16,262 bases of DNA from Candidatus Methanoperedens sp. Lineage in GTDB: Archaea; Halobacteriota; Methanosarcinia; Methanosarcinales; Methanoperedenaceae. The position numbers were made by a program, and so were the translations under genes. The number at the start of each line of letters is the position of its first letter. Positions within the stretch are counted from its first letter, which is position 1. Positions 5,226 to 16,020 of this stretch are shown piece by piece. The DNA is taken from the NCBI GenBank assembly GCA_027460535.1, contig JAPZAR010000017.1:1-16262 (forward strand), written 5' to 3'. The notes below the pieces were generated by a model. The model was not told where the DNA came from. It did not search any database and saw nothing but the letters and a program-made list of their open reading frames with translations.

Positions 5226-5313
5226 TGGCGCCGAGGGGGAGACTTGAACTCCCGAGGGGCAAAGCCCCACAAGCTTTCCAGGCTTGCGCCTTAGGCCGCT
5301 AGACTACCTCGGC
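5226..5313 (-). tRNA. tRNA-Ser, anticodon GGA, with genomically encoded CCA
   Basis: Hand-folded from the minus strand. Acceptor stem GCCGAGG/CCUCGGC; 3-bp D stem GUC/GGC; anticodon stem CAAGC/GCUUG with loop CUGGAAA (anticodon GGA). Long variable arm GGGGC-UUU-GCCCC; T arm GGGAG-UUCAAGU-CUCCC; discriminator G followed by CCA. Confidence 0.92.
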
Positions 5314-8365: not shown

Positions 8366-8584
8366 TCAAATCGATTCCCGTATGTTGAGTTGTATATTAA
8401 AGCTTATTCAAATCCGTTTTATATTTGAAAAAAAATTTGATTACCAATTGATCTGTTAAAATTGCTCTATAAATTTTTTTTTGTCCGCATGACGCAATGT
8501 TTATTAACCAGGAGTTTATATATAATCCATCAGGGAAAAATGGGAAAAACGGATTTTGCATAATAAGATGGAAGGAGACAATCA

Positions 8585-8779
8585 ATGTTAGAAACACCGA
8601 GAGAGAGAGTGGAATTGTTAAAAGCAGGGATCAGCGGCAAAAAAATAGAAGAGCTATACATAAAGCATAATAACTTTAGAATAGTGGACGGCCCGTTCTT
8701 TTTCGAGATGGTCGAAATTGATACCAGGGGAAATCAGAATTTCATTCAGGAGACAGCAGCCGCCTGCGAGTACGTTTAG
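8585..8779 (+). CDS. Small hypothetical protein (64 aa), function unknown
   Basis: AAGGAG (8572-8577) lies 7 nt upstream of the ATG at 8585. The sequence is MLETPRERVELLKAGISGKKIEELYIKHNNFRIVDGPFFFEMVEIDTRGNQNFIQETAAACEYV. The N-terminal part vaguely resembles a helix-turn-helix. It lies on the same strand as, and upstream of, the peptide/rSAM cassette. Confidence 0.45.
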   Translation: MLETPRERVELLKAGISGKKIEELYIKHNNFRIVDGPFFFEMVEIDTRGNQNFIQETAAACEYV

Positions 8780-8841
8780 GTTGAAACCGGCCCGACTAAT
8801 GAACGCGCTCATCAGGGGAGTTGCAGGCTCCCATGCTTTCT

Positions 8842-8974
8842 CTAATTCATAAGTTTGAGGAATATCTCTTCAGGTGATTTCTGTCTTTTGAATATCTATT
8901 GCCATTCCATTGTTTAGATTAACCAGGGCATAATCCTGTTAAAATCAACCAGATTTCTTTGTGTGCGCTATGAA
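8842..8974 (-). pseudogene. Decayed fragment of an ABC-transporter ATPase 3' end, a ghost copy of 10759-10893
   Basis: 8842-8872 is identical over 31 nt to 10759-10789, starting exactly at the TAG stop codon. Homology then continues at lower identity with -2, -1 and +1 nt indels. After correcting for the indels it decodes roughly as ...NNGMAIDI.KTE..EEIFLKLMN*, versus ...KNNGMIIDIKTIETSLEEIFLKLMN* in the intact gene. Confidence 0.7.
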
Positions 8975-9002
8975 TTTTTTTTCCCATTAGCACCCTCCGA
9001 AA

Positions 9003-9036
9003 TTATTATATACCAAATGCAGACATTATATATAAT
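9003..9036 (+). promoter_or_regulatory. Candidate archaeal TATA boxes for the peptide/rSAM cassette
   Basis: attatata (9005-9012) and attatatataat (9025-9036) lie 35-70 nt upstream of the precursor start. Assigned by position and composition only. Confidence 0.3.
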
Positions 9037-9072
9037 CGGGAAATATTATTTAATAAAAAGGAGGTGAGAGTC

Positions 9073-9309
9073 GTGGAAAAGGAAGCTATAGGAAAAAATA
9101 TATTGATCAATCTTAAGCGGGTTGAAAAGATTGATGCTGAGTCTCAAAGGATAATTAAAGATTTTGAGAAACAAACTGGGAAACCCCTAAAAGGTTCAAC
9201 TGGATTTGTGCTTTCCATGCATAAAGTGCCGGTAATGGGATCAACTGGTTACTGTCAATGTAAATGCAGCAGTACGAGCGATTGCGGGGGCGGCGGAGGA
9301 GGTTCATAA
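9073..9309 (+). CDS. Putative RiPP precursor peptide (78 aa) with a long leader, a C-terminal Cys-rich core and a Gly6-Ser tail
   Basis: A strong Shine-Dalgarno GGAGGTGA (9060-9067) lies upstream of the GTG at 9073. The GTG at 9064 used by the ORF track lies inside the SD itself. The sequence is MEKEAIGKNILINLKRVEKIDAESQRIIKDFEKQTGKPLKGSTGFVLSMHKVPVMGSTGYCQCKCSSTSDCGGGGGGS. It sits immediately upstream of, and co-directional with, an RRE-containing radical SAM/SPASM enzyme. Confidence 0.65.
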   Translation: MEKEAIGKNILINLKRVEKIDAESQRIIKDFEKQTGKPLKGSTGFVLSMHKVPVMGSTGYCQCKCSSTSDCGGGGGGS

Positions 9310-9326
9310 ATGATAGTTTGAAGCTT

Positions 9327-9360
9327 CGGCAGAAGCCATTAATTGATAAGCTTTCTGCCG
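9327..9360 (+). promoter_or_regulatory. Intercistronic stem-loop between precursor and maturase, a possible attenuator or processing site
   Basis: cggcagaagc (9327-9336) pairs with gctttctgccg (9350-9360). That gives 10 bp with one bulged T and a 13-nt loop, followed by a weakly T-rich tract (gcatttctatt). Confidence 0.4.
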
Positions 9361-9380
9361 GGCATTTCTATTCGTGGAAG

Positions 9381-10712
9381 ATGGACGCTATGAAACTTAA
9401 TAAGAATTTAATATTACCGCGATATTCTTCTTTCAATGTATATAAAAACAATAGTGATTATTTTATCATTAATCCTGAAGTAAATTTTTGGTTTAGATTA
9501 TCTAAAGAACAGTTCCTGGCGTTTAAGCTGCTAGACGGGAAGTCAACCGTTGATGAATTGCTTAACAAAATAGATGACAATCTTCCAGAATCACTGCGGG
9601 AAGCCTGTATTAAATTTATTGAAGAAATTGCCTTGAATTACCCCGCGAAGTCTATCGCTCTTCCTAAATCAACATTATTATCCACAATGTATCTGGTATT
9701 GACAAATAAATGTAATTCTAATTGTTTATATTGTTTTCGTGATTTGGAAGGTTCTCATGGTATTGATGGGCACAGTGCTTTAGATAAGAATTTGATAAAG
9801 AATGCTATCCTGTCTTTCAGAAATATAGCTGTCGCTAATCCTGCAATCGTTTATACAGGAGGGGAACCGTGTTTGTTTCCTGAGTTGATTGAAATTGCAG
9901 ATTTTGCTAAGAAAAATAATATTGAAAACGTGCTGCAAACAAACGGTTTGCTCATCAATGAAAACAATGCCTCGTTATATGCCGAAATATTCGACAAGAT
10001 CCAGATTAGTTTGGATTCTACCAATGAAGAAGTAAACGACTGGTTGAGAGGAAAAAAAGGGCATTTCAAAACCGTAAAGCGTGCTATGGCATTGTTGCGT
10101 AAATATGATGTAAAGATTAAGTTAGCGGCTACTATTACAAAAAAGAATTTTCATGACATCTCAAACATAAAAAAATATTTCCCGGAAATTGAGTTTCAAT
10201 TCACCCCCATGCTCCAGATTGGAAAAGGGAAAGAAAACTCTCATTTGTCGTTCTCGCCAGATGAATTTCTTGAACATTTAGTTAGTCTACCCGATGGTTC
10301 GAAAACTCTAACTGTTAAAAATATTCCTGAATTCGGAACAAAAAACCAGATGTGTGGCGCCGGAACATCTATTTTGAGTATTTCCTCAAATGGAGATGTC
10401 TTCCCCTGTCAAATGTTGCATCACCCAGATTTTTATTGTGGGAACATAAAAAATGATTCGTTAGAAAATATATACCATTCTTCGGAAACAATAGAAAGAT
10501 TTAGGACACTTACAATTGATATGGTAGATAGTTGCAAGGATTGTGATGTACGCTATATTTGTGCAGGAGGCTGCATAGCTAATGGATTTTGGCTTAATAA
10601 TGCCTTTCCGGTTAAAGATTATTTTTGTGAATTTAACAAAGAACTCTATTTTTATAACATGATTAGCAAATTTAAGGAGATCAATCTGACAGCAACTAAT
10701 ACTTTTGCATGA
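9381..10712 (+). CDS. Radical SAM / SPASM-domain peptide maturase with an N-terminal PqqD-like RiPP recognition element
   Basis: It has the CX3CX2C motif CNSNCLYC (9711-9734) and the GGE-type motif VYTGGEP. The C-terminal SPASM signature is CGAGTSILSISSNGDVFPC ... CKDCDVRYICAGGC ... C. The first ~95 aa (FNVYKNNSDYFIINPEVNFWFRLSKEQFLAFKLLDGKSTVDELLNKI) look like a PqqD/RRE winged helix. The start is taken as ATG 9381; ATG 9390 is equally possible. The ORF-track start at 9264 overlaps the precursor and lacks an SD. Confidence 0.9.
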   Translation: MDAMKLNKNLILPRYSSFNVYKNNSDYFIINPEVNFWFRLSKEQFLAFKLLDGKSTVDELLNKIDDNLPESLREACIKFIEEIALNYPAKSIALPKSTLLSTMYLVLTNKCNSNCLYCFRDLEGSHGIDGHSALDKNLIKNAILSFRNIAVANPAIVYTGGEPCLFPELIEIADFAKKNNIENVLQTNGLLINENNASLYAEIFDKIQISLDSTNEEVNDWLRGKKGHFKTVKRAMALLRKYDVKIKLAATITKKNFHDISNIKKYFPEIEFQFTPMLQIGKGKENSHLSFSPDEFLEHLVSLPDGSKTLTVKNIPEFGTKNQMCGAGTSILSISSNGDVFPCQMLHHPDFYCGNIKNDSLENIYHSSETIERFRTLTIDMVDSCKDCDVRYICAGGCIANGFWLNNAFPVKDYFCEFNKELYFYNMISKFKEINLTATNTFA

Positions 10713-10758
10713 TGCGATATCAGATCATAAATAAGCCAAAGAATGGCTCGACGTGAGG

Positions 10759-11640
10759 CTAATTCATAAGTTTGAGGAATATCTCTTCAAGTGAAGTTTC
10801 TATTGTTTTAATATCTATAATCATTCCGTTGTTCTTCACAACCCAACCAGTGATTCTGTTGAACTCATCCAGATCATTTGTGCGTGCTATGAAAGCCCCG
10901 TTCTCTTTTGATGCTTTGAAATCAAATTCTGCCTCAGCATTGAACTTGATTATGTATTCAATGCCACCGCACATTTTCTTTATCTCTGCCATTGTGCCGC
11001 AGGCTATTTCCTTTCCTTTATTCATTATCAGCACGCGGTCGCACAGGCTTTCCACCTGGTAAAGGTTGTGTGCGCTGAACACAATGGTCTTTCCCTGATT
11101 TTTAAGTTCCGACACGAAATCTGCGAGATATCTTGATGTCGTGGGGTCAAGACCCGATGTCATTTCATCCAGTACCAGGTATTCGGGGTCATTGATCAAT
11201 GCCCGGGCGATAGCTACCTTTCGCTGCATCCCCTTTGACATATCCCCTATCCTTTTATTTGCAGCTTCGAGCCGAAGCGCGCCCAGTATCTCCTTTATCC
11301 TATCCGAGGCAATACCTTTCTTGATCCCGTAAATTTCCGCGAAGAAAAGAAGATAATCATTCGCAGTCATTCCTTCATACAGGGGACTTTCTTCTGGCAA
11401 AAAACCAAGTTTCTGTTTTATTTTCTTCGAATCCTTTTTGAAATCCATTCCTTCTATCCCTATACTTCCACTCGTAGGGGTGATAAGCCCGCTCAGCATT
11501 TTCAGGGTGGTGGTCTTGCCCGCGCCATTCGGCCCCACGATGCCGAATATCTCACCTTTTTCAATCCCGAAGGTCAGGGACTCGACCGCTGTAAATCCAT
11601 CGTATTCCTTATGCAGCCCTTTTACCTCGATCTCTTTCAT
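10759..11640 (-). CDS. ABC transporter ATP-binding protein (ABC-2/DrrA-like) with no adjacent permease gene
   Basis: 293 aa. Motifs present: Walker A GPNGAGKTT, Q-loop, signature variant MSKGMQRKVAIA, Walker B YLVLDEMTSGLD, and H-loop FSAHN. There is also a ~70-aa C-terminal accessory domain. Confidence 0.93.
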   Translation of the reverse strand: MKEIEVKGLHKEYDGFTAVESLTFGIEKGEIFGIVGPNGAGKTTTLKMLSGLITPTSGSIGIEGMDFKKDSKKIKQKLGFLPEESPLYEGMTANDYLLFFAEIYGIKKGIASDRIKEILGALRLEAANKRIGDMSKGMQRKVAIARALINDPEYLVLDEMTSGLDPTTSRYLADFVSELKNQGKTIVFSAHNLYQVESLCDRVLIMNKGKEIACGTMAEIKKMCGGIEYIIKFNAEAEFDFKASKENGAFIARTNDLDEFNRITGWVVKNNGMIIDIKTIETSLEEIFLKLMN

Positions 11641-13347: not shown

Positions 13348-14808
13348 ATGAAAAAACTAATGAAAAAGAAATTTAACAATAAAATCCTTATTATCGGTTA
13401 TGGTTCAGTTTCGCAATGCACCGTGCCCGTTTTATTGGATAAAATCGATGTCTCGCTAAACAACATTACTATAATTGATTTTGAAGACAAATCAAAAGCC
13501 CTGAAAAAATATACTGATCAGGGATTAAAATATTTCCGTGAAAAAATTACCCCGGAAAATATAGATCAAGTTTTGTCAAAATATCTGGATAATGGGGACT
13601 TGCTCATTGATTTAGCATGGAATATCGGCGCCAATGATATTATTAAGTGGTGCCATGAACACAATGTATTGTACGTTAATACTTCGATTGAACTCTGGGA
13701 TCCTTCTGAGGGAATTTATACGAAGAGCCCGTTTGAAAAATCGCTTTATTGGCGGCAAATGCAGTTGCGGGATCTTTCCCTTAATTGGAAAGATGCGCCG
13801 ACGGCTGTTGTTGACCATGGCGCTAATCCCGGCCTCATTTCTCACTTCGTCAAGCAAGGCCTATTGGATATTGCTGCACGTATCTGTGCTGATAAGAAAG
13901 TTTCTCAAGCAGACGAAGAGGAAATTTGCCATCTTGCGAAAAACTGGGATTTTGCCCAACTCGCGAAGAAATTAGGAATTAAGGTAATCCATTGTAGTGA
14001 GCGAGATACTCAAATTACCAACAAGCCAAAATTGGTTAACGAATTTGTAGGGACGTGGAGCATTGAAGGATTACGGGAAGAAGGAACTGCTCCGGCTGAA
14101 TTGGGCTGGGGCACGCATGAGAGGAAGCTGCCTTCTTTGGCCAATATACCTCCGTGCGGACCTAAAAATCAAATTTTTTTGCCTCAAATGGGCATCAATA
14201 CATGGGTCAGATCGTGGATACCGGATGAAGAAATTGTCGGTATGATGATCCGCCATGGTGAAGCATTCGGTCTTTCAGACCGATTAACTGTTTGGGAAAA
14301 TGGCAAGGCGATCTACCGGCCTACCGTAAATTATGCTTATATGCCCTGCCATGAAACGCTTTCTTCGCTTCATGAATTGCGCGGCCGGAATTACGAAATC
14401 CAGCCAAAGATCAGAATTATGACAGATGAAATTACATCTGGCGATGATACTTTGGGAGCGCTCTTGATGGGGCATTATTATAATTCCTGGTGGACGGGCA
14501 GCTCTTTAAGCATTGACGAAGCCAGATCTCTCGTTCCGGGCCAAAACGCTACCACCCTTCAAGTTGCGGCAGGTATTGTTGCTGCCATACTCTGGATGCT
14601 TGAAAATCCGCGGGAAGGTATTAAATTGCCCGACGACCTGCCTCATGATTTTGTTCTGGATATTGCTAAACCGTATCTTGGAAAATTTATTTCCACTCCG
14701 TCGGACTGGACGCCTCTTAAAAATCGCAAAATATTTTTTAAAGAAAATCCTGCCGCGAAATCCAATCCTGATCCCTGGCAATTTGAAAATTTTCTTTTTA
14801 TAGATTAA
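13348..14808 (+). CDS. hss: Homospermidine synthase-like enzyme (bacterial-type HSS, saccharopine-dehydrogenase-like NAD fold)
   Basis: 486 aa with an N-terminal Rossmann motif KILIIGYGSVSQ. The stretches VDHGANPGLISHFVKQGL and GTWSIEGLREEGTAPAELGWGTHE match my recollection of bacterial homospermidine synthases. It is followed by an ornithine decarboxylase gene. Confidence 0.75.
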   Translation: MKKLMKKKFNNKILIIGYGSVSQCTVPVLLDKIDVSLNNITIIDFEDKSKALKKYTDQGLKYFREKITPENIDQVLSKYLDNGDLLIDLAWNIGANDIIKWCHEHNVLYVNTSIELWDPSEGIYTKSPFEKSLYWRQMQLRDLSLNWKDAPTAVVDHGANPGLISHFVKQGLLDIAARICADKKVSQADEEEICHLAKNWDFAQLAKKLGIKVIHCSERDTQITNKPKLVNEFVGTWSIEGLREEGTAPAELGWGTHERKLPSLANIPPCGPKNQIFLPQMGINTWVRSWIPDEEIVGMMIRHGEAFGLSDRLTVWENGKAIYRPTVNYAYMPCHETLSSLHELRGRNYEIQPKIRIMTDEITSGDDTLGALLMGHYYNSWWTGSSLSIDEARSLVPGQNATTLQVAAGIVAAILWMLENPREGIKLPDDLPHDFVLDIAKPYLGKFISTPSDWTPLKNRKIFFKENPAAKSNPDPWQFENFLFID

Positions 14809-14841
14809 TAAGAACAATTGTTAATAATATCGGATACAATA

Positions 14842-16020
14842 ATGATCGAAAAACAACATAAAATTTTAGAAAAAATTGCCCGGGAACACGGTACGCCGGT
14901 TTTTATTGTAGATCATGAAAAGATCAGGAAGAATTATCGTGAATTCAGGGAAAAATTGCCTGACGTGCAGGCATATTTTGCTGTTAAGGCAAATTCCAAT
15001 CCTGAAATTATCAAAACTATGTATGATATGGGAGCAAGTTTTGACGTGGCTTCTTTCCCTGAATTTATGCTTGTTCATAATAATATCAAGCATTTGCCAG
15101 AAAAAGAACGGCAGGATTTTATCTGGGACAAAATTATCTATGCTAATACCATCAAGCCTGCCGAAGTCCTGGCTAAGTTAAATGAATATAAGATATTAGT
15201 TACTTTTGATAACGTTGAAGAATTGAGAAAGATAAAAAAACATGCCCCGGATGTTGGTCTGGTTCTAAGGATCCGCGTACCCAATACCGGTTCTATGGTT
15301 GAGCTTTCCTCAAAATTTGGAGCCCATCCTGGAGAAGCGGTGGATCTTATCGCTGAAGCCGTGAATTTAGGGCTTGGAGTTGAAGGCATTAGTTTCCACG
15401 TGGGCAGCCAGTGCAATAATTTTGATAACTATTCGCAAGCTTTGAATTTCGCCTCCTCGATTTTCAAGGAAGCGGAATTGAGAAATTATCAAATTGGGTT
15501 TATTGACAAAGAAGGCAAAAAACGAAAGATTTTGGATATTGGCGGCGGCTTTCCGGTAAAGTACACGCCGGACGTAAAATCTTTTTCCGCCCTGTCTGAA
15601 ATTTTGAATTCGGAAATAAAGCGTTTGTTCCCCAATGATGATATTCAGGTTATTGCCGAGCCGGGAAGATTTATGGTGGCAACGGCCTGTACCTTGGTCA
15701 CGAAAATTATTGGCAAAGCTGTTCGTGATGGAAAAACATGCTATTATCTGAACGACGGTGTTTATCATACTTTTTCCGGACAGGTTTTTGATCATCAGCA
15801 CTATCCGCTGCATTCCTTCAAGGGCGGAGAGAAAAAAGTTTGCGCTACATTTGGCCCCACTTGCGATGCTTTCGACACTATTTCGCTGGCCGATGAGCTG
15901 CCGGAAGATCTGCAAATTGACGATTTGCTTTATGCTGAAAATATTGGTGCCTATACGATCGCTTCAACCACCTATTTTAACGGTTTCCCGCCTCCAAAAG
16001 TGGTGCATTTGAATAAATAA
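14842..16020 (+). CDS. PLP-dependent ornithine (Orn/Lys/Arg) decarboxylase, alanine-racemase fold (group IV)
   Basis: It has the PLP-lysine motif YFAVKANSNP, the phosphate-binding motif DIGGGFP, the EPGRFMVA motif and the substrate-site FGPTCDAFD. The likely start is the ATG at 14842 (MIEKQHKILEKIAREHGTPVFIVD) rather than the TTG at 14818. Confidence 0.88.
   Translation: MIEKQHKILEKIAREHGTPVFIVDHEKIRKNYREFREKLPDVQAYFAVKANSNPEIIKTMYDMGASFDVASFPEFMLVHNNIKHLPEKERQDFIWDKIIYANTIKPAEVLAKLNEYKILVTFDNVEELRKIKKHAPDVGLVLRIRVPNTGSMVELSSKFGAHPGEAVDLIAEAVNLGLGVEGISFHVGSQCNNFDNYSQALNFASSIFKEAELRNYQIGFIDKEGKKRKILDIGGGFPVKYTPDVKSFSALSEILNSEIKRLFPNDDIQVIAEPGRFMVATACTLVTKIIGKAVRDGKTCYYLNDGVYHTFSGQVFDHQHYPLHSFKGGEKKVCATFGPTCDAFDTISLADELPEDLQIDDLLYAENIGAYTIASTTYFNGFPPPKVVHLNK

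Follow-up and report, generated by a model that had tools for sequence, protein, structure and literature searches.

A two-gene, RiPP-like cassette in Candidatus Methanoperedens: a Cys/Gly-tailed peptide and a radical SAM/SPASM enzyme from a rare, mostly bacterial family

The peptide and maturase genes

The stretch of DNA analysed here, positions 1 to 16,262 of contig JAPZAR010000017.1 from Candidatus Methanoperedens sp. (assembly GCA_027460535.1; hereafter the window), carries on its forward strand a pair of adjacent genes, one for a small peptide with a Cys- and Gly-rich C-terminus and the other for a radical S-adenosylmethionine (SAM) enzyme with a SPASM domain. An earlier note, made from the sequence alone, had described the two as a precursor and a maturase of the kind that produces peptides made on the ribosome and modified after translation (RiPPs), the maturase being fused to a RiPP recognition element (RRE), and this description is supported by the domain composition of the enzyme, the predicted fold of its N-terminal region and the co-occurrence of the two genes in other genomes. 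In GenBank, the product of the small open reading frame (ORF), denoted P0050 here, is a hypothetical protein, and the enzyme is a radical SAM protein.

The small ORF (9073-9309, + strand) starts with GTG, encodes 78 amino acids and ends with GYCQCKCSSTSDCGGGGGGS, as established from the ORF listing and direct reading of the sequence; the Shine-Dalgarno sequence GGAGGTGA is located 5 nt 5' of the start. All the coordinates and sequence details in the earlier note, which had emphasized the strong Shine-Dalgarno sequence and the Cys/Gly tail of this peptide, were borne out. The 18 residues that we treat as the core read C-Q-C-K-C-S-S-T-S-D-C-G6-S, with the leader/core boundary placed at the first Cys because, in the relatives that possess double-glycine leaders, the leader abuts Cys1. 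Within the leader, Phe45 is invariant in both peptide alignments (A2 and A4) and Val46 is invariant in A2; the F-V-L motif is a candidate RRE-binding strand.

The enzyme ORF (9381-10712, + strand, 443 amino acids) begins 71 nt 3' of the small ORF. The ORF and its motifs are as read previously; its start, however, is corrected here to the ATG at 9390 (MKLN...), which the homologues support as the conserved start, in preference to both 9381 and the TTG at 9318 annotated in GenBank. The radical SAM motif, the GGE motif and the full SPASM signature noticed earlier coincide with significant matches to the corresponding Pfam models (Table 1), and the residues of the CNSNCLYC and GGE motifs are invariant in 16 homologues. 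The SPASM pattern, verified with regular expressions, consists of C-x12-G-x4-C at residues 325-343, C-x2-C-x5-C-x3-C at 385-398 and the distal C416. The seven canonical SPASM Cys are the only ones common to the clade that includes the window enzyme and to a second, more distant clade of maturases (clade B, see below), the extra Cys353 being specific to the window clade and replaced in clade B. The seven-Cys motif for two auxiliary Fe-S clusters is thus present, and cluster binding is predicted from it, with a non-Cys cluster ligand being possible, as in PqqE. In AlbA, seven SPASM Cys have been discussed as serving two [4Fe-4S] clusters, and this arrangement is seen in CteB, in which the Aux I cluster has an open site that binds a substrate Cys; the anSME clusters, by contrast, are fully ligated, with eight ligating Cys (PMC6231123). 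A seven-Cys SPASM domain fits thioether formation without proving it.

The AlphaFold2 model of residues 1-98 (predicted local distance difference test score, pLDDT, 90) comprises three strands (19-23, 26-31 and 36-40) followed by three helices (42-48, 57-67 and 70-86). Of the 15 PDB structures ranked highest in a Foldseek comparison, 13 are RRE domains or RiPP enzymes that contain one, with probabilities up to 0.99; the top folds include leader-bound TbiB1, ThcOx, TruD/LynD, the B1 protein of a lasso-peptide system, the PbtF RRE, PqqD, and the N-terminal parts of CteB and TigE. When a profile of this domain was compared with PDB sequences, no relevant relative of solved structure was found, so that fold comparison alone worked; the Pfam PqqD model weakly matches the clade B relative L119 (E = 0.0054). 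Of the models that the earlier note proposed for a search of 9381-10712, those for radical SAM and SPASM matched; the RRE was recovered by fold and not by sequence models. At the level of the fold, the RRE assignment holds, and peptide binding by this domain is predicted. In the full-length model (pLDDT 76), the best structural match is CteB, the SCIFF thioether synthase (441 columns, E = 3e-12), followed by anSME, SkfB, SuiB and TigE. By sequence, the best match among solved structures is anSME (6.5e-30), and the anSME structures align solely to residues ~105-418, leaving the RRE-like domain uncovered.

The AT-rich, TATA-like element upstream of the peptide gene (Table 1) is a putative promoter; a scan for sigma-70 promoters and terminators performed no better than on shuffled sequences, the model being inapplicable to an archaeon. 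Between the two genes, the local hairpin alone is significant, the fold of the whole 96-nt spacer being not (z = -1.57). Each of the five further close-clade loci that were tested has a hairpin of unrelated sequence at this position (z between -3.1 and -6.4), and in the locus from an anammox bacterium, the hairpin is followed by a T run. In lantibiotic and subtilosin operons, such a hairpin is usually read as an attenuator that keeps the precursor mRNA in excess. Likewise, the hairpin described here is likely to be a partial terminator or attenuator that sets the ratio of the peptide and enzyme transcripts, probably keeping the peptide mRNA above the enzyme mRNA.

Table 1. Features of the cassette and its borders (positions in the window)
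Feature	Position	Strand	Details
Decayed copy of the ABC ATPase gene's 3' end (last ~44 codons)	8842-8975	-	...PEEIFLKLMN*, internal stops; marks the left cassette boundary
Upstream region	8996-9072	+	Conserved with the second Methanoperedens genome; TATA-like TTATATATAA at 9026-9035, Shine-Dalgarno at 9060-9067
Precursor leader region, 60 amino acids	9073-9252	+	GTG start; holds the family-wide hydrophobic F-V-L motif (GFVLS)
Precursor core CQCKCSSTSDCGGGGGGS and stop codon	9253-9309	+	Four invariant Cys, Thr at position 8, Gly run; kept in 54 peptides
Intergenic hairpin, then T-rich stretch	9323-9363	+	-17.2 kcal/mol, z = -3.06
RRE-like domain, residues 1-95	9381-9665	+	AlphaFold2 model and Foldseek; start probably ATG 9390
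Radical SAM core	9696-10160	+	CNSNCLYC at residues 111-118, GGE at 160-162; Pfam PF04055, 5.7e-21
SPASM domain	10353-10628	+	Seven canonical Cys (325, 343, 385, 388, 394, 398, 416); Pfam PF13186, 8e-13
Maturase C-terminal tail and stop codon	10629-10712	+	ORF listing
ABC-2/DrrA-type ATPase	10759-11640	-	Convergent with the maturase gene, 46 nt downstream of it; Pfam ABC_tran, 2.8e-32

Conservation of the gene pair and of the peptide core

The fetched loci were translated in six frames and scanned for the pattern C.C.C...CG4+. In each of the 7 distinct contexts of close enzyme homologues with available upstream DNA, the same peptide, in an ORF of 69-78 amino acids, is encoded directly upstream of the enzyme gene. 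These close homologues (53-87% identity) are few, falling into about 15 clusters (90% identity) in a set of 5.8 billion proteins, and a scan of a genome collection recovered one close relative. The hosts of the close clade include a second Methanoperedens genome, the anammox Brocadiaceae Ca. Wujingus and Ca. Subterrananammoxibius, and Clostridia and their relatives (Gottschalkia purinilytica, Desulfolucanica intricata and Clostridium pasteurianum), in addition to groundwater and other metagenomes.

The peptide family is rare: a peptide profile retrieved 18 peptides from a word-indexed database, and an exhaustive HMMER scan of 1.84 billion representatives yielded 48 cluster representatives. For the more distant peptides, a radical SAM/SPASM gene encoding 431-509 amino acids was found at most ~140 nt downstream in 6 of 7 look-ups. 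The enzymes encoded next to these peptides constitute clade B, which, with ~77 clusters, is larger than the window clade; its members share 38-64% identity with one another and 27-32% with the window enzyme, the latter counted along the whole protein, including the RRE region. The named hosts of clade B belong to Acidobacteriota, Actinomycetota and Alphaproteobacteria (Pyrinomonadaceae, Thermoanaerobaculia, Spirillospora, Actinacidiphila acididurans and Flavisphingomonas formosensis). The pairing of the two genes is far beyond chance. To the question of co-occurrence posed in the earlier note, the answer is that the small Cys/Gly ORF accompanies the enzyme across phyla, and the nearest homologues did not turn out to be sulfatase maturases or cofactor enzymes that lack such an ORF.

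The consensus of the family core is C-x-C-x-C-[S/G]-x-[T/S]-x-[S/D/T]-C, after which come a Gly-rich run (6-9 residues) and a tail (0-12 residues). The four Cys are invariant, and the loop between Cys5 and Cys11 consists of 5 residues in 51 of the 54 sequences; in these standard-length cores, position 8 is occupied by Thr (35/51) or Ser (6/51). Core positions 2 and 4, located between Cys, are freely variable. The rule that these positions hold one Lys and one Gln, seen in the close relatives, was dropped given the presence of QQ, KK, KE, LK and other pairs in the wider set.

When the 54 peptides are anchored on the last Cys, Gly is present at positions +2, +4 and +6 in all of them. Nine of the 54 sequences depart from a pure Gly run (SGGGGG, GGSGGG, GGGGSG, SGSGSG and GGSGQGG), and all 14 non-Gly substitutions in these variants are confined to +1, +3 and +5. 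This parity is no artefact of retrieval because the search profile favors Gly equally at all six positions. The Gly trio with a period of 2 mirrors the trio of invariant Cys (Cys1, Cys3 and Cys5) that has the same period, and the simplest structural reading of this sequence pattern would be a hairpin of two strands that makes the Cys face and the Gly face neighbors across the strands. The Gly and Cys codons vary synonymously among the loci and, therefore, selection works on the protein.

At least five unrelated kinds of leader precede this core: that of the window (LINLKRVEKID...PLKGFVLD), a longer one (HILxRNxxGGLT...LPxxV...PFLIL), a short one (FRKALP...DPFVIIG), forms with a twin-arginine translocation (Tat) signal (MRRREFL...) and, in three members, a classical double-glycine leader (ELxxV[S/A]GG) that abuts the first Cys. 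The sequences of the double-glycine and Tat leaders imply that, for at least some family members, the product is processed and exported. Locus L128 (2578-4773) encompasses two tandem Tat-signal precursor genes (136 and 137 amino acids) with slightly longer core loops, followed by a radical SAM/SPASM gene, an arrangement which suggests that some family members are exported after modification. Among the remaining peptides, P0048 (126 amino acids), a relative of the peptide from the groundwater locus L046, runs past the Gly run into ~58 unrelated residues; this long form is probably not real and due to a frameshift or to misassembly of the GGN repeat.

Origin and neighborhood of the Methanoperedens cassette

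The suggestion in the earlier note that this is an archaeal RiPP family does not hold. The close clade includes Clostridia and Brocadiaceae, and all the named hosts of clade B are bacterial. The neighbor-joining tree, for which clade B served as the root, groups the two Methanoperedens enzymes as a shallow pair (100% support) nested in the close clade, and the clade around this pair consists of a Clostridia-type group, Brocadiaceae and unassigned metagenome sequences. Furthermore, the GC content of the maturase gene, 34.3%, is the lowest among the window genes, the others being in the range of 40.6 to 50.4%; the adjacent ATPase gene, at 44%, is host-like. Horizontal acquisition fits the data because of the bacterial hosts, the nested position in the tree, the low GC content and a repeat that brackets the gene pair. 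Most likely, Methanoperedens got the cassette from bacteria, the direction being suggested by the tree and the composition but not proven.

The peptide and maturase genes lie between the two copies of this ~75-130 bp direct repeat (8842-8975 and 10759-10890), with no integrase in between; the segments 8842-8914 and 10759-10833 are 97% identical over the first 36 nt. A three-way alignment with the 3' end of the ATPase gene from the second Methanoperedens genome (L001) confirmed that the left copy is a decayed copy of the ATPase gene. The repeat resembles a scar left at the ATPase 3' end by an insertion or a rearrangement. The window and L001 share the block 8996-11619 at 81.6% identity, and both flanks of this block differ. 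In bacteria, the cassette is found amid toxin-antitoxin modules or integrase fragments. In the anammox locus L003 (4626-5204 and 7630-8338), it is located between a toxin-antitoxin pair of the HigB/HTH (helix-turn-helix) type and a MazE/PIN pair; toxin-antitoxin surroundings are typical of mobile or variable genome regions. These observations fit the entry of a small mobile two-gene cassette into Methanoperedens beside the 3' end of the ABC ATPase gene.

The ATPase from the window is 78% identical to its L001 counterpart; it scores 251 bits with TIGR01188, under the cutoff of 312, and 160 bits with the model of lantibiotic-protection ATPases. In L001 (7376-11076), two ABC-2 permease genes with weak SagH-like and CPBP-like similarity accompany the ATPase gene; the window contains no permease, and the Dabb-domain gene and tyrS occupy the place of the permease genes beside the ATPase. 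No such transporter was detected beside the pair in the bacterial loci inspected. The ABC ATPase was considered as the exporter of the system and dropped as a family feature, given its absence in the bacterial loci, its host-like GC content and the lack of a permease in the window. The remark in the earlier note that no exporter is visible holds to the extent that none is conserved across the family, but not for the two Methanoperedens genomes, in both of which the ABC-2 ATPase gene abuts the maturase gene. The ATPase is probably not part of the imported two-gene unit and is linked to the cassette in Methanoperedens only, where it may serve export or immunity.

The remainder of the window contains, upstream of the cassette, cbf5, cmk, an EMC3/YidC-like gene and adk and, downstream of the ABC ATPase gene, the Dabb-domain gene, tyrS, a saccharopine-dehydrogenase-like gene and an ornithine/diaminopimelate (Orn/DAP)-decarboxylase-like gene. 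The archaeal neighbors listed previously (cbf5, cmk and tyrS) are thus seen again, in addition to adk. At 13348-16020, the saccharopine-dehydrogenase-like gene adjoins the Orn/DAP/Arg-decarboxylase-like gene, a pair that presumably recalls the carboxy(nor)spermidine dehydrogenase/decarboxylase route of polyamine synthesis. A tRNA-Ser gene (anticodon GGA; 5226-5313, - strand) is located directly downstream of cbf5 and has no relation to the cassette; scans of the window with Rfam and ARAGORN for tRNAs found nothing besides this gene. The region of ~475 bp from adk to the repeat of the ATPase fragment (8366-8841) is without a recognizable feature, and the ORF in it that encodes 64 amino acids (8585-8779) has no Pfam or NCBIfam match.

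Proposed product, alternatives and known systems

Our favored interpretation, to which we assign a probability of roughly 0.6, is that the gene pair is a RiPP cassette that makes a peptide with intramolecular thioether bridges, similar to sactipeptides or ranthipeptides. We infer the chemistry, the ring topology, the contact between the RRE and the leader, and the biological role along the following lines. The 78-residue product would be a precursor in which 60 leader residues are followed by 18 core residues, and the RRE of the maturase would bind the leader, probably via the conserved F-V-L strand. The radical SAM site would generate a 5'-deoxyadenosyl radical, hydrogen would be abstracted from acceptor residues in the core, and the SPASM clusters would aid the joining of the core Cys sulfurs to the acceptor carbons; in radical SAM sactisynthases, it is the C-alpha hydrogen of the acceptor that is abstracted. 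In the core hairpin, Cys1, Cys3 and Cys5 would lie opposite Gly13, Gly15 and Gly17, and three nested S-to-C-alpha (sactionine) bridges, C5-G13, C3-G15 and C1-G17, could form, the sequence pattern being suggestive only; Cys11 and Thr8 might provide a fourth link, in the turn. These three bridges are proposed because the Cys and Gly trios match in their period of 2 and because Gly and Ser are proven acceptors in streptosactin, the product of the top-scoring NCBIfam family.

A bolder proposal, which we consider tentative and on balance doubtful, is that the product represents an undescribed scaffold, a minimal beta-hairpin 'ladder' with three nested Cys-to-Gly C-alpha thioethers and a fourth Cys in the turn. 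Leaders of the RRE, double-glycine and Tat types would have been swapped around this constrained core, and a shared ecological or redox/metal role, not that of an antibiotic, would be possible in Methanoperedens and Brocadiaceae. Methanoperedens and anammox Brocadiaceae commonly share habitats. The invariance of the core across distant hosts and five leader types argues for a product with a precise three-dimensional structure and a specific target or function.

Several observations weigh against the thioether-bridged RiPP. All scores of the window enzyme for named NCBIfam families are far below the cutoffs, and the type of bond is unreadable from homology; anSME matches nearly as well as CteB. 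The SPASM region is modeled with low confidence (pLDDT <50 at residues 325-344 and 396-403), the E-values of the RRE fold matches are weak (8e-3 to 0.5), and Pfam PqqD gives no match in the window protein. The Gly parity rests on nine variant sequences that are not fully independent, and the period-2 Gly pattern could stem from packing or metal binding instead of marking crosslink sites. No protease or transporter is conserved with the pair. Finally, one peptide lineage, P0062 (L121-L123), lacks an adjacent radical SAM gene: in L121 (7001-9656), as in L122 and L123, the gene that follows the peptide, whose core (CKCQCSVTNDCGGGGGGS) is that of the family, encodes a 738-residue protein without a Pfam or NCBIfam match; this locus is either decayed or has a different partner enzyme. 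A phage-type integrase gene is located ~3 kb upstream of the peptide gene in L121.

The same pair, with the same logic of leader and RRE, might carry out a different radical modification, such as C-C or C-O crosslinking, epimerization, the anSME-like oxidative conversion of Cys or Ser to formylglycine, the formation of thio-oxazole, or C-alpha chemistry restricted to the Gly run. SPASM maturases catalyse many reactions, the window enzyme is scored similarly by the models of anSME, DynA, WgkB, MftC and the heme synthase AhbD (120.6, 118, 118, 117 and 114 bits, respectively), anSME is its best sequence match among solved structures, and it reaches no family cutoff. Nevertheless, we view such an activity as unlikely: four invariant Cys within 11 residues are the hallmark of thioether RiPPs, the core is devoid of the aromatic residues needed by most of the known C-C and C-O crosslinks, and the top match is a thioether synthase both for the full-length fold and in NCBIfam.

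The product could also act in the metabolism of the producer itself as a cofactor-like or metal-binding molecule, with the CxCxC...C thiolates holding a metal or Fe-S cluster, or as a redox cofactor resembling mycofactocin or PQQ. The much stronger conservation of the core compared with the leader, across five leader types, is indeed typical of PQQ, mycofactocin and SCIFF and not of antibiotics; the loci inspected have no protease, immunity gene or exporter in common; the Tat signals of some members mark the route of folded, cofactor-loaded proteins; and the hosts include redox specialists, Methanoperedens and anammox bacteria. However, the three members in which a double-glycine leader abuts Cys1 imply removal of the leader and export of a peptide of ~20 residues, the family occurs very sparsely and patchily and shows signs of mobility (integrase fragments, flanking toxin-antitoxin genes and the bracketing repeat), and no partner oxidoreductase is conserved nearby, all of which makes a cofactor or metal carrier quite improbable. 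That the small ORF is incidental and the enzyme is a housekeeping SPASM protein (for instance, a sulfatase maturase, or a synthase of heme or of a cofactor) whose substrate is encoded elsewhere, as its generic similarity to anSME, AhbD and NirJ and the unspecific GenBank names might suggest, is effectively refuted by the co-occurrence data, given that the adjacent peptide is kept in archaea, Planctomycetota, Clostridia and their relatives, that the ~30%-identical clade has it in further metagenome contigs, one of these from Pyrinomonadaceae, that the RRE-like domain lies outside the anSME structures, and that the scores for cofactor families are far below the cutoffs.

Peptides modified by radical SAM enzymes are a rich source of bioactive scaffolds and of new enzyme chemistry, and to our knowledge few if any of those studied come from archaea. 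The parity rule of the Gly run provides a concrete, falsifiable structural prediction. Sister enzymes are encoded by cultured organisms, namely Gottschalkia purinilytica, Desulfolucanica intricata, Clostridium pasteurianum BC1, Actinacidiphila acididurans and Flavisphingomonas formosensis, so that the chemistry is testable without cultivating Methanoperedens. The cassette is, moreover, a likely case of bacteria-to-archaea transfer of natural-product genes into an anaerobic methane oxidizer.

The cassette falls in no curated family. No NCBIfam model corresponds to the 52 family peptides, the SCIFF peptide model included, the sole peptide matches being weak ones to TIGR04149, which two members with double-glycine leaders owe to the leader; the window peptide, the sole peptide scanned with Pfam, has no significant match. 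These results agree with the earlier impression that the Cys/Gly terminus fits no named class, and public records go no further than the names radical SAM protein and hypothetical protein. A search of 8 million full texts found nothing on this family or on Methanoperedens RiPPs, although subscription-only papers or supplementary network tables might list the cluster unnamed, and no description of a period-2 ladder with all-Gly acceptors was found in the literature searched. For the enzyme, the best NCBIfam match is the streptosactin sactisynthase family StsB/GggB (NF045574; 139.2 bits, cutoff 625), which covers residues 19-401, including the N-terminal domain. The scores for anSME (TIGR03942; 120.6 bits, cutoff 349), MftC (117.2 and 265), AlbA (NF012164; 88.2 and 850), PapB (88 and 340), PqqE (86 and 381) and the SCIFF maturase (TIGR03974; 79.5 and 425) are lower.

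The cassette resembles the streptosactin system (GggA/GggB = StsB, type 2 sactipeptides) in its radical SAM/SPASM enzyme, and the streptosactin precursor family is named for its conserved Gly motif. In streptosactin, a Cys-to-Gly C-alpha thioether and a Cys-to-Ser thioether have been demonstrated experimentally (PMC8172795, PMC9389541). However, streptosactin has two unnested 4-residue rings, its gene cluster includes quorum-sensing regulators and a protease, and it is streptococcal, whereas the peptides described here possess four Cys with a C-x-C-x-C triplet and at least 6 Gly with period-2 invariance, and the cassette encodes a 60-residue leader and no protease.

The order of RRE, radical SAM and SPASM domains is that of CteB, from the SCIFF and ranthipeptide systems (CteA/CteB, Tte1186 and freyrasin/PapB); as in those systems, there are two genes and no dedicated protease or exporter. 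In both cases, the strong conservation of a Cys-rich core speaks against a simple antibiotic role (PMC8326336). In contrast, SCIFF precursors consist of ~45 amino acids, with six Cys and no Gly run, and the SCIFF and ranthipeptide bonds are formed to Thr C-gamma or Asp C-beta. The arrangement of the core also resembles that of the classical nested sactipeptides, in which evenly spaced N-terminal Cys donors and evenly spaced C-terminal acceptors are brought together in a hairpin (PMC8326336), and the seven SPASM Cys are shared with AlbA, the subtilosin synthase. Unlike the peptides described here, subtilosin (AlbA), thurincin H and thuricin CD have mostly bulky or polar acceptors spaced by 3-4 residues, leaders of 8-29 amino acids, and immunity and export genes.

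The radical SAM and SPASM architecture is also that of anSME, from which the enzyme differs by the RRE-like domain, the lack of a sulfatase in the window, the conserved dedicated small peptide, and seven shared SPASM Cys compared with eight in anSME. None of the loci inspected contains companion genes of the mycofactocin or PQQ pathways (MftB/D/E/F or PqqB/C/D). All four elements of the general RiPP architecture, that is, CX3CX2C together with GGE, the seven-Cys SPASM domain, an RRE-like fold and a conserved small ORF on the same strand, are present. Thus, the peptide and its enzyme, rare and found mostly in bacteria, appear to constitute an uncharacterised and unnamed family built on the familiar paradigm of RRE-dependent radical SAM RiPPs.

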